From: Candidatus Moraniibacteriota bacterium | Lineage (GTDB): Bacteria > Patescibacteriota > Minisyncoccia > Moranbacterales > UBA1568 | Direction: 5' to 3' | NCBI GenBank assembly: GCA_037201605.1 | Contig: JBBCGM010000001.1 | Location: 1,128-65,127, forward strand | Length of the DNA stretch: 64,000 bases | Shown here: positions 60,593 to 64,000 of the stretch, in pieces | Position numbering within the stretch: the first letter of the stretch is position 1 | Layout of the letters: each line of letters begins with the position of its first letter | The notes under the pieces: model-generated | Database searches by the model: none | The model's input: the letters and a program-made list of their open reading frames with translations, nothing else | What the model was told of the DNA's origin: nothing | Program-made: the position numbers and the translations under genes

Positions 60593-60666
60593 TGGAGCGA
60601 GTGATGGGAATCGAACCCACGTCCTCAGCTTGGAAGGCTGATGTACTACCATTGTACGACACCCGC
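60593..60666 (-). tRNA. tRNA-Gly(TCC) with encoded CCA
   Basis: GCGGGTG/CACTCGC acceptor, a D arm identical to tRNA-Gly(CCC), TCAGC-CTTCCAA-GCTGA anticodon arm, GTGGG-TTCGATT-CCCAT T arm, then discriminator T and CCA. Confidence 0.9.
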
Positions 60667-60721
60667 GTTCCCATCAGGTTGACTCGCTATTTAGTTGGGA
60701 AAGAAGCTCACTACAACCCTA

Positions 60722-60750
60722 ATTATACTCGCTCCCTACCAGATTGTCAA
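60722..60750 (-). promoter_or_regulatory. Perfect consensus sigma-70 promoter upstream of tRNA-Gly(TCC)
   Basis: The minus strand reads TTGACA, a 17-nt spacer, then TATAAT, about 50 nt upstream of the tRNA. The -35 box overlaps the stop of the HTH gene. Confidence 0.7.
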
Positions 60751-60950
60751 GCTTTTGTCATTTCTTGGCTTTCCTCAGCCTTTTTCTTCTCGTTGCGGAT
60801 AATCTGTGCAATGGTTGATTTATCCCGGCCGTAAATTTCTGCTAGTTTCAGGAGAGGCCAAACCCTTCTCCCCTTCTTTTTGCCTGTCTTGTGGAGTATT
60901 AGGGAACGGCGGTAAATCTCCTCATTTCTCTCTGTAAGCTTGTGGGACAT
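60747..60950 (-). CDS. Small helix-turn-helix DNA-binding protein (excisionase/regulator-like)
   Basis: Intact 67 aa. LLKLAEIYGRDKSTIAQIIRNEKK looks like an HTH. It lies directly downstream of the integrase. Confidence 0.5.
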   Translation of the reverse strand: MSHKLTERNEEIYRRSLILHKTGKKKGRRVWPLLKLAEIYGRDKSTIAQIIRNEKKKAEESQEMTKA

Positions 60951-61006
60951 AGTCAGGAATCATTCTGTTTCCTCCATTTTACTACAACCCCAAGAAAAAA
61001 GCAAGC

Positions 61007-62029
61007 CTAGAGGCTAAAAAGCACCGAGCGTATCCGTTCTTCGATCGTTTTGTCAGCCGCCTGTATGTATGTCTGCGTGGTAGAAATACTACTGTGACCG
61101 AGCGCCCAGCGAATGGAGTTGATGTCGAGACCGGAATAGTACTTGTCCGTGGCAAAGGTGGTGCGGATGTCGTGGCAGGTCATTTTCACGCCGGCCCGTT
61201 CACTGTATTTCTTGATGATACGCTGAATAGAGCGTTCGTGGACTTTCTGCTTAGCCTGCCAGTGGGTGGTCACAAAAAGCCAGTCCAGGCCGTCCTGAGA
61301 GGCTCTACGGGCTTCTATATGCCTCTTAAGGTAGACATTCGTGGTTTCGCTCCAGAAGATCTTACGAAGCTTCTTACCCCTCGATTTTGCTGAAAGAATC
61401 ACGGCCTCGCATTTCTCCGTATCCATCTGACTGATCTTCAAACTTGCCATTTCGCAGACACGAATACCACTATCAAAGAAAAGATGCAGCACCATGAGAT
61501 CACGCATCCCCACAGAAGCATTTCTGTCCACCTGGGCGATGATACGTAGGTAATCTTCCCGCTTGATGGCTCGGAAGTGTTGCGCCTCACCACGAGGCTT
61601 TTTGAGCAACTCAAAGGGAGCGTCAAAGAACCCCATTTGCCGGCACCAGGCCGCATAGTCTCGCATGGCAGCGATAGCAATCCGCCGAGTACCGGGACGA
61701 TACTTGGTCGCCATCCAGTCGGCGAACGCCTGCATATCGTCGTAACTGAGGATCTCCCCTTGAGGCCTATTGTGGAATTGGTAAAGCTTACGTAGCCAAA
61801 TGCCGTAGGAGACAGCGGCTCGAGGGGTTTGAGGCGCCTTCCACGAAAGGTAGCGTTCGAGAGGATTCATATCAGCGAAGACAATGATGGCAGTGTCAGT
61901 GTCGCTGATTGAACTAACGGGATGGTATACCACCGCCCGGCTTATTCTGTCAAGGAACTCCAAAGCCTCCCGAGTATTGCGAAGTATCGGAATGGAAACG
62001 AAATCTTCAAAAAGGAGGTCGCTGGTCAT
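61007..62029 (-). CDS. Tyrosine recombinase / phage integrase family
   Basis: Intact 340 aa. Catalytic signature: SGIRVCEMASL (Arg), CHDIRTTFAT (HxxR), LGHSSISTTQTYI (His...Tyr). Confidence 0.85.
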   Translation of the reverse strand: MTSDLLFEDFVSIPILRNTREALEFLDRISRAVVYHPVSSISDTDTAIIVFADMNPLERYLSWKAPQTPRAAVSYGIWLRKLYQFHNRPQGEILSYDDMQAFADWMATKYRPGTRRIAIAAMRDYAAWCRQMGFFDAPFELLKKPRGEAQHFRAIKREDYLRIIAQVDRNASVGMRDLMVLHLFFDSGIRVCEMASLKISQMDTEKCEAVILSAKSRGKKLRKIFWSETTNVYLKRHIEARRASQDGLDWLFVTTHWQAKQKVHERSIQRIIKKYSERAGVKMTCHDIRTTFATDKYYSGLDINSIRWALGHSSISTTQTYIQAADKTIEERIRSVLFSL

Positions 62030-62421
62030 CCTTTTACCGTTTACTCAATGCACACAAAGAATAAACGGGAGGCCTTCTCTTGGTCAAAAAAGTCCAGCGA
62101 GGCACAAGATGTTGAGTAGAAGCACTTGCGTGATCTAAAAAGGGGTTGTATAATGAATTTCAATCTCCTTACCAAATAACGGTTGGTCGCCGTTTATGCA
62201 ACACCGACACGAACTCGTGTCGTCTTCCGGCGTAAGGTTTTCAAAAAAAGACCATTGCGCCAAAAGCGCATTCCCCGAAAGGGTGTTGCGCCTTACGCTG
62301 GAAGAGGGTACGAGTTTTTCCTTTAATAATTGCCAATTGCTCAGAATCCGTTGATGAGCAATGGCAGGGGTTAAAGGTGACCTCCTCTGCGGTAATTTCG
62401 GTCACACGAAATCCAAAGGTT

Positions 62422-62586
62422 ATGGCCAAGCGCCTGCCCTTCGGCATGATTTGCCGAGCATGGATCACGCTCCCAGATGGGACGAGACGTTATGCGAAGG
62501 ATTACGGTTTGAAGGCCTTCTGCTTCTTCCCTTCTCGTAAGGGTAAGAAAAAGAAGACGACCCTTGCTGGGGTCGCTTCAAACTAA
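62422..62586 (+). CDS. Small basic hypothetical protein (54 aa)
   Basis: MAKRLPFGMICRAWITLPDGTRRYAKDYGLKAFCFFPSRKGKKKK. A plus-strand terminator follows 20 nt later. The RBS is weak. Confidence 0.4.
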   Translation: MAKRLPFGMICRAWITLPDGTRRYAKDYGLKAFCFFPSRKGKKKKTTLAGVASN

Positions 62587-62670: not shown

Positions 62671-62699
62671 AGTATACAGCTTGACAAGCTGTATGTCAA
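62671..62699 (-). promoter_or_regulatory. Promoter with an operator-like palindrome in the spacer
   Basis: The minus strand reads TTGACA, a 17-nt spacer, then TATACT. The perfect inverted repeat TACAGCTT-GAC-AAGCTGTA (62675-62693) fills the spacer. Confidence 0.6.
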
Positions 62700-62701
62700 T
62701 A

Positions 62702-62875
62702 CTAACGCTTGTCTGCTTTATACCGACCATAAATCGCTAAGACCGTACCAGCTACTGCCAAGAGGGCAGTCAGTACACTCTCAATTTCCGTCTTTGTAGC
62801 ATACCCTTCCAAGAGATAGGAAAGTGCTAATGTCGCGATACCAAGGTATGTGCGGTATCCTTCAAGAAATGCCAT
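62702..62875 (-). CDS. Holin-like 57-aa two-TM protein
   Basis: This ORF is below the track cutoff and I translated it by hand: MAFLEGYRTYLGIATLALSYLLEGYATKTEIESVLTALLAVAGTVLAIYGRYKADKR. It overlaps the 3' end of the M23 gene out of frame. Confidence 0.5.
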   Translation of the reverse strand: MAFLEGYRTYLGIATLALSYLLEGYATKTEIESVLTALLAVAGTVLAIYGRYKADKR

Positions 62876-63474
62876 ATTCTTTTGATTATTTCAACTAATT
62901 TCTGTGCTTTCTCCGCTTCCTCGACCTTTGGCGGTTCTACGATTACTCCAGGAGAATGAATAATGACTGGTTCTTTGAATTCCGGGGCTTCTACTACTAC
63001 GGGGCCTCCGCCCGTTGTCGTAATCGTCACCTCAGGAACTTCTTCCTTTGGTTCTGGCTTTGGCTCTATTCTGTCTATTTCATCAAAGAATTTCTCTGGA
63101 TCAATGAAATTGGAGCGATTTGTCAGCTCTAGATTCCCATTTTTAGAGACGTCTACATGCCAGTGAGGGCCTGTGGATAGCCCTGTATTACCTGTAAAGG
63201 CAAAGACTTCCCCCCTCTTATACTTCCCGACCTTCGGAAGCTCTCGAAGGTGTAATGAACGCACAAGCTCTTTGCGTCCATCAAGTTTTACGAAAGCAGT
63301 ATTTCCGCCTTCTTTGCCCACCTGTGTTTTGATGACTTGTAGATCAAGTGGGGCATAGAGAGGCGTTCCTATCGCCACCATAAAATCCGTCCCGATGTGG
63401 AAGTCGTTATAGAAGGTTTTATCGCCAAAGCGATACGCCCTTCTTATTCGTACATAATTACTGAGTGGATACAT
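62827..63474 (-). CDS. M23 (LytM-type) peptidoglycan endopeptidase, endolysin-like
   Basis: Intact 215 aa with HIGTD (HxxxD) and GPHWHVDV (HxH) motifs. There is no signal peptide. A Pro/Glu-rich linker and an amphipathic tail follow. Confidence 0.8.
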   Translation of the reverse strand: MYPLSNYVRIRRAYRFGDKTFYNDFHIGTDFMVAIGTPLYAPLDLQVIKTQVGKEGGNTAFVKLDGRKELVRSLHLRELPKVGKYKRGEVFAFTGNTGLSTGPHWHVDVSKNGNLELTNRSNFIDPEKFFDEIDRIEPKPEPKEEVPEVTITTTGGGPVVVEAPEFKEPVIIHSPGVIVEPPKVEEAEKAQKLVEIIKRIWHFLKDTAHTLVSRH

Positions 63475-63477
63475 ATT

Positions 63478-63621
63478 TTATTGCAATGCGTCGATTTCTG
63501 CTTGAATTTCCTCCTTTTCCTCATCGGTTAAGAGAGGGTGAAGGAGATTCTGAGAAAGAAATTCTATACGTCTTTCTCTTTCTTGTTCGCTTAACTTACC
63601 CGGAACAGCTTTCGCAGACAT
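63478..63621 (-). CDS. Small hypothetical protein (47 aa)
   Basis: Translated by hand: MSAKAVPGKLSEQERERRIEFLSQNLLHPLLTDEEKEEIQAEIDALQ. It ends 3 nt before the M23 start. Confidence 0.35.
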   Translation of the reverse strand: MSAKAVPGKLSEQERERRIEFLSQNLLHPLLTDEEKEEIQAEIDALQ

Positions 63622-63739
63622 CTTCGTTTAGTAAAGAATTAGTCTCTTTCTTCATCTCGTCTCTATAAAGGTCATAAGCCTCATCCTCTTTGCCCTGATC
63701 TATAAGGGCTTTCATTTTTTCTTCAAGTTCTTTTTTCAT
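63596..63739 (-). CDS. Small hypothetical protein (47 aa)
   Basis: Translated by hand: MKKELEEKMKALIDQGKEDEAYDLYRDEMKKETNSLLNEDVCESCSG. Its start overlaps the upstream stop (ATGA). Confidence 0.35.
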   Translation of the reverse strand: MKKELEEKMKALIDQGKEDEAYDLYRDEMKKETNSLLNEDVCESCSG

Positions 63740-64000
63740 AGGAGGATCCTGTCTATCTGGTCATAAAGTTCGTCCAAAGTCTTGACTTCTATAGTCGGCA
63801 GTTTTATGTCATCCAGGCTTGTTTCTGACGTATGATTGTCGCCCGTCTCGTGTTCTTTCCGGATGATGCGATAGACCGTTCCGTTCAGACCCTGTACTGC
63901 CTCTAGTTCATTCGGGAAACGTACATCGTCAGTAACGACAATATTGGCTGAAGATTTCTTGACCCGCTCTTTGTACTGATCAACCCAGTAATCTTCCCAA
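63736..64000 (-). CDS. dNMP-kinase-like protein, C-terminal part (5' end beyond the window)
   Basis: NIVVTDDVRFPNELEAVQGLNGTVYRIIRKEHETG. The DVRFPNE motif is typical of phage deoxynucleoside-monophosphate kinases. Confidence 0.5.
   Translation of the reverse strand, partial: WEDYWVDQYKERVKKSSANIVVTDDVRFPNELEAVQGLNGTVYRIIRKEHETGDNHTSETSLDDIKLPTIEVKTLDELYDQIDRILL

Follow-up and report, generated by a model that had tools for sequence, protein, structure and literature searches.

Positions 60645-64000 of the window, the 64,000-nucleotide stretch of DNA analyzed here, very probably form the end nearest the integrase, 3.4 kb long, of a tailed-phage prophage of 41,878 bp that lies in the chromosome of a Candidatus Moraniibacteriota (CPR/Patescibacteria) bacterium and whose Xer-like integrase used the 5' part of tRNA-Gly(TCC). 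A sequence-only reading of the window had proposed a prophage or a remnant; extension of the contig, a 25-bp repeat, and an empty site in relatives all favored the former, and on available evidence the element is apparently complete. It ties a large family of uncultivated phages to a host by physical linkage, with base precision; the capsid protein has more than 1,300 metagenomic homologues. Links between CPR bacteria and phages are otherwise mostly predicted via CRISPR spacers or binning.

Boundaries of the element

The window matched the reverse complement of NCBI record JBBCBH010010996.1 at 100% identity, which is a 235.6-kb contig that we walked 38 kb past the window edge. The genome is a metagenome-assembled genome (MAG), and the source named for the matching proteins was Candidatus Moraniibacteriota. 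A 41,878-bp element was found to be bracketed by an exact 25-bp direct repeat, AACGCGGGTGTCGTACAATGGTAGT, located relative to the tRNA as follows:

Record 14118-14142 and 55996-56020, same strand: copies of the direct repeat
Window 60593-60666, minus strand: tRNA-Gly(TCC), the integration target (ARAGORN; Rfam RF00005, 68.8 bits, full model)
Window 60645-60669, minus strand: tRNA-side att copy, comprising tRNA positions 1-22 and the 3 nt that precede them

The copies matched at 25 of 25 positions (blastn-short, E = 1.4e-8), and the chance expectation for exact 25-mers is about 3e-8. The sequence-only reading had correctly reported no repeat of the tRNA within the window, the partner copy (record 14118-14142) lying 41,878 bp to the right, 38 kb past the window's right edge; its suggestion that the att sites were elsewhere proved wrong, as one of them is inside the 5' end of the tRNA. 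The drop in GC content that it had noticed was borne out, at 48.1% in the prophage versus 53.4% in the host (2-kb windows; Mann-Whitney p = 3e-7). An independent Logan assembly of run SRR28211700 contained a 26.7-kb contig, 99.996% identical, that spans the phage-tRNA junction and reaches 5 nt past the repeat. Most contigs bearing homologues of the capsid protein or of a 636-aa protein measured 38-46 kb, in agreement with the 41.9-kb size of the element. No attP-like sequence was matched in IMG/VR.

Gene content and integrity of the prophage

Viral protein searches along the extended contig identified capsid, terminase, tail, replication, and lysis genes. The major capsid protein is gpT-like (PF25209; 1,391 homologues) and of the HK97 type; it is at most 32% identical to that of any GenBank phage, and one homologue was annotated from a Paceibacterota MAG. 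The large terminase profile (PHROG 38) matched two consecutive ORFs (2e-14 and 4e-31), and a 572-aa ORF between the terminase and the capsid, which had no PHROG or NCBIfam match, is a candidate portal by position alone. Tail- or baseplate-like proteins are also encoded, most tail proteins, like the candidate portal, having no family match. Genes for replication comprise a PolB-type exonuclease (PHROG 403, 3e-61), a Mu Gam-like protein, a single-strand DNA-binding protein, and a replication initiator, while an RNA ligase (PHROG 968, 2e-54) and a polynucleotide kinase (PHROG 505, 2e-84) form an RNA-repair pair. The prophage uses the standard genetic code.

Several of these genes are split in the NCBI record, as might be expected of a cryptic remnant in decay that has lost particle formation: one frameshift cuts the large terminase within the Walker B motif into 338 and 298 aa, another interrupts the RNA ligase at residue ~347, and a third divides the Gam-like gene in two. 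The first two sites are located as follows:

Record ~28,250: frameshift in the terminase
Record ~24,300: frameshift in the RNA ligase

However, rpoB and rpoC, essential genes of the host that lie in this window too, are in at least 7 ORF fragments. The assembly is therefore rich in indel errors, and the split phage genes are probably errors of this kind, since host genes are fragmented likewise. One added base yields a 654-aa terminase reading PDFLLLDDFE, and over 26.7 kb the NCBI and Logan sequences differ only by one extra C in an NCBI C-run, at which site the Logan version gives a single 166-aa ORF. In addition, the two 25-bp repeats have kept their full identity, and the size of the element fits that of free relatives. 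With so many frameshift errors in the source assembly, its apparent pseudogenes should not be taken for gene decay. We consider a decaying remnant unlikely and favor a whole prophage, which may be inducible.

The integration site in related genomes

In 18-19 of 77 related loci, a homologue of the gene to the left of the far repeat immediately precedes tRNA-Gly(TCC), and in most relatives shown its stop codon lies a few to ~40 nt before tRNA +1. In these 18-19 Moraniibacteriota loci, homologues of the 451-aa and RNHCP genes come next, and integrase and phage genes are absent. At the level of gene order, the site is empty in these relatives, which are other species and not the same strain.

As a fallback, the sequence-only reading had assigned the tRNA and the operon at 55-60 kb to the mobile element, which would make the tRNA phage-encoded. 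A 634-aa protein left of the tRNA does match phage virion or tail PHROGs via Ig-like domains, and its gene, like a DUF1996 gene, is missing from every one of the 77 related loci. Nevertheless, the delimiting repeat stops inside the tRNA, at position 22; GC content on that side of the tRNA equals that of the host; and the tRNA-Gly(TCC), 451-aa, and RNHCP genes are conserved neighbors in phage-free relatives, so that this assignment is wrong in all probability. An assembly chimera at the conserved tRNA sequence is scarcely conceivable, even though breaks and misjoins of contigs are frequent at tRNAs and the phage contig from Logan terminates inside this one, since a single contig carries both junctions, the phage-tRNA junction is independently present in the Logan contig, and the far junction carries exactly the displaced 22-nt fragment, directly after the conserved C-terminus and stop of the gene preceding the tRNA in relatives.

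Proposed mechanism of integration

The tRNA-Gly(TCC), present where the sequence-only reading had placed it, is intact, with positions 1-22 on the phage side and positions 23-74 from the host. By the direction of tRNA transcription, the displaced 5' fragment lies 41.9 kb upstream of it; the fragment and the intact tRNA have the same orientation, with the integrase gene between them, a configuration matching that of the 5'-fragment islands in Islander. The attP rebuilt from both junctions points to the following spacer, and the promoter was found by a promoter scan:

60646-60651, minus strand: putative crossover spacer TGGTAG, D-loop positions 16-21
60722-60750, minus strand: outward sigma-70 promoter TTGACA-17-TATAAT (12/12 consensus)

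The spacer is flanked in the reconstructed attP by 10-bp inverted repeats, TGTCGTACAA and TTGTTCGACA, which are complementary at 9 of 10 positions, and crossover would occur within it, in the D-loop. We propose that the Xer-like tyrosine integrase acts on the phage attP and on the 5' portion of the host's tRNA-Gly(TCC) gene, recombining the two. Because the phage brings its own version of tRNA positions -3 to +22, integration by this enzyme would rebuild an intact tRNA and leave the 22-nt 5' fragment at the far end, thereby putting 41.9 kb between the tRNA body and its native upstream context. The position of the integrase on the 5' side of the tRNA, which had been seen as an oddity, is a genuine feature of the element and no argument against integration, since the 5' portion of the tRNA is supplied anew by the phage.

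The 12/12 promoter overlaps the stop codon of a 67-aa ORF, and the end of its -10 box is 55 nt ahead of tRNA +1; at the other end of the element, two terminators follow the displaced tRNA fragment, 41-107 nt beyond the far copy of the core. The attP region thus has the order promoter, tRNA 5' piece, terminators. We infer that in the lysogen this phage-borne promoter transcribes the tRNA, and the terminators just past the displaced fragment would block host read-through into the prophage.

The integrase and neighboring elements

Between the att site and the lysis genes, the following features were located:

60747-60950, minus strand: 67-aa small protein between integrase and att, called in the NCBI record
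61007-62029, minus strand: Xer-like tyrosine integrase (PF00589, 5e-28; PHROG 1, 2e-33)
62212-62316, minus strand: conserved structured non-coding element upstream of the integrase (nhmmer E = 3e-5 to L009, a second prophage)
62671-62699, minus strand: promoter TTGACA-17-TATACT (11/12), with a perfect palindrome of 21 bp inside it
62674-62694: palindrome 10-1-10, ATACAGCTTG-A-CAAGCTGTAT, a putative operator

The call of a tyrosine integrase was upheld by a PF00589 match covering 168 of the 172 model positions and by the catalytic residues R190, K215, H286, R289, H312, and Y321, which are invariant in an alignment of 7 homologues. Translation probably starts at M54 (61870), because every homologue begins there. 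The match to the N-terminal SAM-like core-binding domain (PF13495) was weak, with an E value of 0.001 and a score of 19.8 bits against a cut-off of 27 bits, and it was weak in the homologues too. Scores for XerA (133 versus 220 bits), XerC (119 versus 335), and XerD (107 versus 330) all fell below the NCBIfam cut-offs; the enzyme is Xer-like in size and fold class, yet not a Xer member. Its family is small, with only 5 representatives among 1.84 billion at E ≤ 1e-30. The integrase ORF is intact, with att ~340 bp past its stop codon.

The small gene next to it, which had been read as an HTH gene, is present at its place, and its HTH nature is tentative: no significant Pfam match was obtained, AlphaFold predicted three helices (pLDDT 77), and the top Foldseek matches were HTH domains, all with E > 1. 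The 67-aa protein is a possible HTH regulator or excision factor. No repressor was identified.

The structured element consists of a 13-bp outer stem around two small hairpins, the second terminator-like; RNAalifold predicted 21 pairs, 6 of them compensatory, and the element matched no family in Rfam. As had been noted from the window, an operator palindrome is present, perfect and within the 11/12 promoter, and this promoter, which faces the integrase, is putatively operator-controlled.

Lysis genes and dNMP kinase

The remainder of the window encodes the following:

62702-62875, minus strand: 57-aa holin-like ORF overlapping the 3' end of the M23 gene
62827-63474, minus strand: M23 metallopeptidase (PF01551, 3e-9; PHROG 7767, 4e-12; endolysin PHROGs)
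63596-63739, minus strand: 47-aa ORF, its start overlapping the dNMP kinase stop by 4 nt, called in the NCBI and Logan annotations
63736-64000, minus strand: 3' part of a dNMP kinase gene (full gene 179 aa) that continues past the window

The M23 peptidase is probably the endolysin, and together with the overlapping small membrane ORF it makes up a lysis cassette, as had been predicted. In the 57-aa protein, a single clear transmembrane segment spans residues 31-49 (mean hydropathy 1.9) and the C-terminus is charged; the protein weakly matches Phage_holin_10 and PHROG 4237 (E about 0.03). The same lysin-then-small-ORF layout occurs in the loci L009, L088, and L100. Two tiny coupled ORFs had also been claimed; the one at 63596-63739 stands, called by both annotations, and no homologues of it were found, while that at 63478-63621 was called by neither. 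The dNMP-kinase-like gene running off the window was confirmed with the full-length protein, which matches PHROG 139 (4e-29).

Related integrase modules

A second prophage, L009/L010, has different structural genes and an integrase 40% identical to that of the window phage. Its sequence departs from the empty-site relatives exactly at tRNA +1, and no far att site turned up in the 29 kb available for it. L009 carries a promoter, TTGACA-17-TAAAAT, at the same place and with the same 55-nt spacing to the tRNA-Gly(TCC) 5' end, and a small HTH gene, IS1 InsA-like, at the position of the 67-aa ORF. In a third integrase-HTH module, L100, the integrase is 34% identical, a Sigma70_r4 protein occupies the position of the 67-aa ORF, and the promoter is, as in the window phage, a 12/12 match. 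In the window phage and L009, the integrase strand carries a 5' piece of tRNA-Gly(TCC); L100 has a 3' fragment, positions 7-76 of tRNA-Gly(GCC), on the opposite strand. The motif GGGTTGTAGT is common to the two promoter regions.

The presence of the same 12/12 promoter in L100, beside a tRNA fragment of the other polarity, speaks against a tRNA-directed promoter, which may not be there for the sake of the tRNA. It is conceivable, if on balance doubtful, that this integrase family defines a fourth tRNA crossover position, in the D-loop, used in both polarities, and that a pre-existing outward promoter of the module made the otherwise harmful 5' polarity viable. If true, a host tRNA, probably single-copy, would be put under phage transcriptional control, and such control could run through the small HTH protein acting via GGGTTGTAGT.

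Comparison with known systems

The displaced piece is a 3' fragment in 3,760 of the 3,919 islands in Islander (PMC4383910, Table 1), the tRNA retaining its own promoter (PMC8371274); 5' tRNA fragments, in 159 of 3,919 islands, are rare but catalogued (PMC4383910). Like classical tRNA-integrating phages and islands, the element described here has a tyrosine integrase beside att, a tRNA piece of its own that rebuilds the gene, and a same-orientation repeat at both ends; unlike them, it displaces a 22-nt 5' fragment, and the identity block ends in the D-arm rather than in the anticodon loop, the T-loop, or the 3' end. It shares its polarity with the 5'-fragment islands, in which that fragment is displaced upstream of the intact tRNA. 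To our knowledge, from a non-exhaustive search, no such island is known from CPR bacteria.

The pTN3-type archaeal integrases of Thermococcales likewise use the 5' half of a tRNA gene as attB, and the rebuilt tRNA uses an element-borne promoter, that of the integrase; attP is located within the integrase gene, and integration splits this gene (PMC8371274). Assignment to this class was rejected, as here the integrase is unsplit, att is 340 bp downstream of it, and the promoter is separate. The dusA-specific integrases likewise insert into the 5' end of a conserved gene of the host (PMC4482086); they differ in having a protein-coding target and belonging to another integrase family. Patescibacteria prophages have been reported from Paceibacteria, with a mean of 43.7 kb (PMC12455944), and from Absconditicoccaceae (bioRxiv 10.1101/2024.03.08.584096). 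The present prophage resembles these in its tailed-phage size and CPR genome and differs in its Moraniibacteriota host, standard code, base-precise att sites, and empty-site comparison. It represents a clean case of the rare integration at the 5' side of a tRNA gene.

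An integrase and lysis module adjoins tRNA-Gly(TCC)

The sequence-only reading had placed a phage-like element, possibly a prophage or its remnant, to the right of tRNA-Gly(TCC) at the right end of the window. It described genes there, among them a tyrosine integrase with the R...HxxR...H...Y signature, an M23 endolysin with an overlapping holin-like ORF, and two tiny ORFs ahead of a dNMP-kinase-like gene running off the window edge, together with an operator palindrome. An exact protein look-up matched the window, in reverse complement, to contig JBBCBH010010996.1 of NCBI GCA_037975565.1 (235,604 bp; record position = 116,665 minus window position). 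Two proteins of this record carry the source name Candidatus Moraniibacteriota, and the record was walked rightward in three steps past the window edge. The genes described earlier were all found as stated, and they are listed with those of the extension.

Features at the right end of the window and beyond it
60593-60666, minus strand: tRNA-Gly(TCC) (ARAGORN; Rfam full-length tRNA, 68.8 bits)
60747-60950, minus strand: 67-aa ORF, right of the tRNA
61007-62029, minus strand: tyrosine integrase (PF00589, 5e-28; PHROG 1, 2e-33)
Between integrase and lysis genes: gene-poor stretch of 640-830 nt, no convincing gene
62702-62875, minus strand: 57-aa holin-like ORF, overlapping the M23 peptidase gene
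62827-63474, minus strand: M23 peptidase gene (PF01551, 3e-9)
Between M23 peptidase and dNMP kinase genes, minus strand: two 47-aa ORFs
At the window edge, minus strand: dNMP kinase gene, 3' part only within the window
Right of window: full dNMP kinase (PHROG 139, 4e-29)
Right of window: PolB-type exonuclease (PHROG 403, 3e-61)
Right of window: tail or baseplate-like protein, 872 aa
Right of window: several tail-fibre-like proteins
Right of window: gpT-like major capsid protein (PF25209)
Right of window: large terminase, as two ORFs (PHROG 38)
Right of window: polynucleotide kinase (PHROG 505, 2e-84)
Right of window: RNA ligase (PHROG 968, 2e-54)
Right of window: replication initiator, single-strand DNA-binding protein and Mu Gam-like protein

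Alignment of the integrase with six homologues showed no variation at its catalytic R, K, HxxR, H and Y, and because all six homologues begin at residue 54 of the window ORF, the actual protein is probably 287 aa long. The operator proved to be a perfect 10-1-10 palindrome at 62674-62694, lying within an 11/12 promoter (62699..62671). Rfam over 60300-64000 gave no match besides the tRNA. For the 67-aa protein, a fold search returned no significant match, and the only matches in a PDB sequence search, designed coiled coils, were dismissed as a composition artefact.

The gene-poor stretch (62030-62700, minus strand) has a much more stable predicted fold than its shuffled controls (z = -6.9). A piece of about 105 nt within it (62212-62316, minus strand) is conserved at positions 9655-9745 of L009, a second prophage whose structural genes are otherwise unrelated (nhmmer E 3e-5); its predicted structure contains 21 pairs, including 6 compensatory ones, with no match among Rfam families. 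Two IMG/VR pattern scans for further copies returned only the same JGI provirus and unrelated chance matches. The element may be an integrase leader or attenuator, or a small RNA.

The extension encodes phage genes

The suspicion of a prophage was borne out beyond the window, where the extension supplied capsid, terminase, tail-like, nucleotide- and DNA-metabolism, replication and RNA-repair genes, among them matches to PHROG 139, 403, 38, 505 and 968. A Logan contig of 26,670 bp, assembled independently from run SRR28211700, is 99.996% identical to the same region. No GenBank phage has a capsid more than 32% identical to this one, which leaves it without a close named relative.

The RNA ligase and polynucleotide kinase genes form a pair at record 23274-26025 (locus L004, 599-3350) that resembles the tRNA-repair system of T4. 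A related phage contig (L088; Logan SRR15237813_10702, 44,052 bp) has an RNA ligase 71% identical to this one and also a Ro60/TROVE protein gene (19100-20491); together, these genes suggest counter-defence against host tRNA nucleases. On L088, the M23 and holin genes directly precede DUF559 and the RNA ligase, with the integrase module absent between them. It may therefore be that most of this phage family does not integrate and that the integrase-HTH-att module was acquired as a cassette.

A 25-bp direct repeat bounds a 41,878-bp element

The search within the window had yielded no direct repeat of the tRNA 3' end. A comparison of the tRNA region with 42 kb of sequence on its right gave a single outstanding match (E 1.4e-8), an exact 25-mer, AACGCGGGTGTCGTACAATGGTAGT, whose copies occupy record 14118-14142 and 55996-56020, the latter being window 60645-60669; the chance expectation for an exact 25-mer is ~3e-8. 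The repeat comprises 3 nt of upstream sequence and tRNA positions 1-22, and the order is host, repeat, 41,853 bp of phage, repeat, remaining tRNA, host. The resulting unit of 41,878 bp agrees with the 38-46-kb contigs bearing homologues of the capsid and of a 636-aa protein. The lower GC content first suggested by spot counts was upheld, at 48.1% inside the element and 53.4% in the window's host portion (p = 3e-7). The ends of the Logan contig were also considered as att sites; the near end falls in the tRNA, but the far end lies inside a portal-like gene and is thus an assembly break. IMG/VR scans gave no matches to the 22-nt tRNA piece and no relatives by integrase alone.

Of the two junctions, attL runs from the host gene through the displaced 22-nt tRNA fragment into the phage, and attR from the phage into the tRNA. 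Joining both junctions reconstructs attP as ...CCTGATGGGAACGCGGGTGTCGTACAATGGTAGTTGTTCGACAAAG..., and attB is reconstructed as ...GAAGAAATAGAAACGCGGGTGTCGTACAATGGTAGTACATCAGCC.... In attP, two 10-bp inverted repeats, TGTCGTACAA and TTGTTCGACA (9/10 complementary), flank a 6-bp spacer, TGGTAG, which corresponds to tRNA positions 16-21 in the D-loop; inverted repeats around a short spacer are the usual core layout of tyrosine recombinases. This spacer borders the block of identity, as would be expected if the phage copy serves to restore the part of the tRNA between the crossover and the 5' end. We infer that crossover occurs within TGGTAG.

Related genomes show an unoccupied site

The host 451-aa protein (window 55685-57040) and its family were used to scan one genome per species, yielding 77 loci, most of which carry the labels Moraniibacteriota, Moranbacteria or Patescibacteria. 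In 18-19 of these, tRNA-Gly(TCC) is immediately preceded by a homologue of the gene just left of the far repeat and followed by the 451-aa and RNHCP homologues, and the integrase and eight tested phage proteins are absent from all 18-19. In the present genome that preceding gene is 41.9 kb away from the tRNA; it is a 157-aa ORF whose motifs point to a probable oxidoreductase. Its conserved C-terminus (..FTG[LM]..KK*) and stop lie 7 nt before the displaced tRNA fragment, and in most relatives shown the stop precedes tRNA +1 by a few to ~40 nt. Because relatives keep the upstream gene, tRNA and 451-aa gene adjacent and phage-free, the 41.9 kb is an insertion, and the tRNA and genes to its left are host sequence. 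The suggestion that the tRNA and the 55-60 kb operon might belong to the element did not hold, as the tRNA and the 451-aa and RNHCP genes are syntenic in phage-free relatives.

The host gene at the far att site (record 13301-14117; locus L006, 28-844) is truncated at 157 aa, and its conserved C-terminus resumes in another frame right before the displaced fragment, making another assembly frameshift probable.

On the 3' side of the same tRNA, between it and the conserved 451-aa gene, lie a 634-aa protein with Ig-like repeats matching phage virion and tail PHROGs and a 498-aa DUF1996 protein (57061-60476, minus strand). Both genes are absent from all 77 related loci, which makes this segment a strain-specific insertion; no integrase lies beside them.

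Frameshifts most likely reflect assembly errors

In the record, frameshifts interrupt the terminase (~28,250, inside Walker B), the RNA ligase (~24,300) and the Gam-like gene; one inserted base in the terminase restores PDFLLLDDFE and a 654-aa protein. Host rpoB and rpoC (window 38900-47700, minus strand) likewise fall into at least 7 partial ORFs that match successive stretches of the Pfam RNA polymerase domains, so that the assembly must hold many indel errors and its apparent pseudogenes are unreliable. Over the 26.7 kb shared with the Logan contig, which lies outside the terminase and RNA ligase region, the single difference is an extra C in a C-run of the NCBI record, splitting an ORF that is an intact 166-aa frame in the Logan contig. 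Given the fragmented rpoB and rpoC and the NCBI-only C, the prophage frameshifts are most likely assembly errors.

ARAGORN calls a tRNA at 11728-11798 (minus strand) whose anticodon has four bases (tggg). In an assembly with indel errors, this is probably tRNA-Pro(TGG) with one spurious base and not a frameshift-suppressor tRNA.

In the Logan assembly the phage contig breaks off 5 nt beyond the repeat (window 60640), where a 31-mer loses its last phage-specific base. If that assembly uses k = 31, an end at this point would be expected when the junction and the unoccupied site are both in the sample. The adjoining host sequence (L008) is present in Logan only as a 2.5-kb contig, against 26.7 kb of phage; both observations are weakly compatible with a mixed or induced population.

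An outward promoter faces the tRNA

A 12/12 consensus promoter, TTGACA-17-TATAAT (60750..60722), is directed into the tRNA, overlapping the stop codon of the 67-aa ORF, with exactly 55 nt from its -10 box to tRNA +1. At the far end, two intrinsic terminators lie 41-107 nt past the displaced fragment. In the lysogen, the tRNA would be severed from its native transcription source, and the gap behind the upstream gene is too short to offer much space for a separate tRNA promoter. The tRNA's sole visible source of transcription would be the phage promoter or read-through from the integrase and HTH genes, and the terminators would block host read-through into the prophage.

The motif GGGTTGTAGT has only two copies in 55 kb, one directly downstream of the outward promoter's -10 box (60710-60722) and one directly upstream of the 67-aa gene (60981-60993); either a regulator or the integrase may bind it.

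Related integrases may use both tRNA polarities

The integrase family is very small, with 5 cluster representatives at E<=1e-30 among 1.84 billion. A 40%-identical integrase occurs in a second prophage (JGI Ga0134124_10000146, L009; ENA k141_3045313, L010) with different structural genes, including an SU10-type portal and an Amidase_2 lysin. L009 has the same order as the window phage, namely integrase, 62-aa HTH, TTGACA-17-TAAAAT, 55 nt and the tRNA-Gly(TCC) 5' end, followed by 451-aa and RNHCP homologues, and it diverges from two empty-site relatives exactly at tRNA +1. For its far att site (L009/L010/L089/L091), no tRNA fragment was found in 29 kb, to ~1 kb from the contig end.

A third module, on phage-like contig L100, has a 34%-identical integrase, a Sigma70_r4 HTH protein and, in the region 6951-7220, a 12/12 outward promoter followed by tRNA-Gly(GCC) positions 7-76 on the opposite strand and a terminator. 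It has the classical 3'-fragment polarity, and its identity block is again bounded at the D-arm. Because all three modules share the D-arm sequence GTCGTAyAr.GG, the integrase family seems to cross over in the D-loop in both polarities. The outward promoter is thus part of the module and not an adaptation for the tRNA alone, which puts less weight on tRNA promoter supply as its purpose; it would still drive the tRNA in the two 5'-polarity prophages.

Comparison with known systems

Altogether, the earlier description is confirmed and the prophage reading supported. Prophages of Patescibacteria have already been reported (PMC12455944; bioRxiv 10.1101/2024.03.08.584096), and among the islands counted in Islander the tRNA fragment is a 3' one in 3,760 and a 5' one in 159 (PMC4383910, Table 1). 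Rebuilt bacterial tRNAs retain the original promoter with very few exceptions, while archaeal pTN3-like integrases use the tRNA 5' half and the tRNA is expressed from the integrase promoter, an arrangement 'seldomly encountered in bacteria' (PMC8371274). The element adds a member to two kinds already known, CPR prophages and tRNA integrations that leave a 5' fragment, and represents no new type of system. The result is well founded and of use for linking CPR phages to hosts and for integration-site biology. The att sites are laid out with unusual clarity, and D-loop crossover in both polarities within one integrase family is possibly a new detail.
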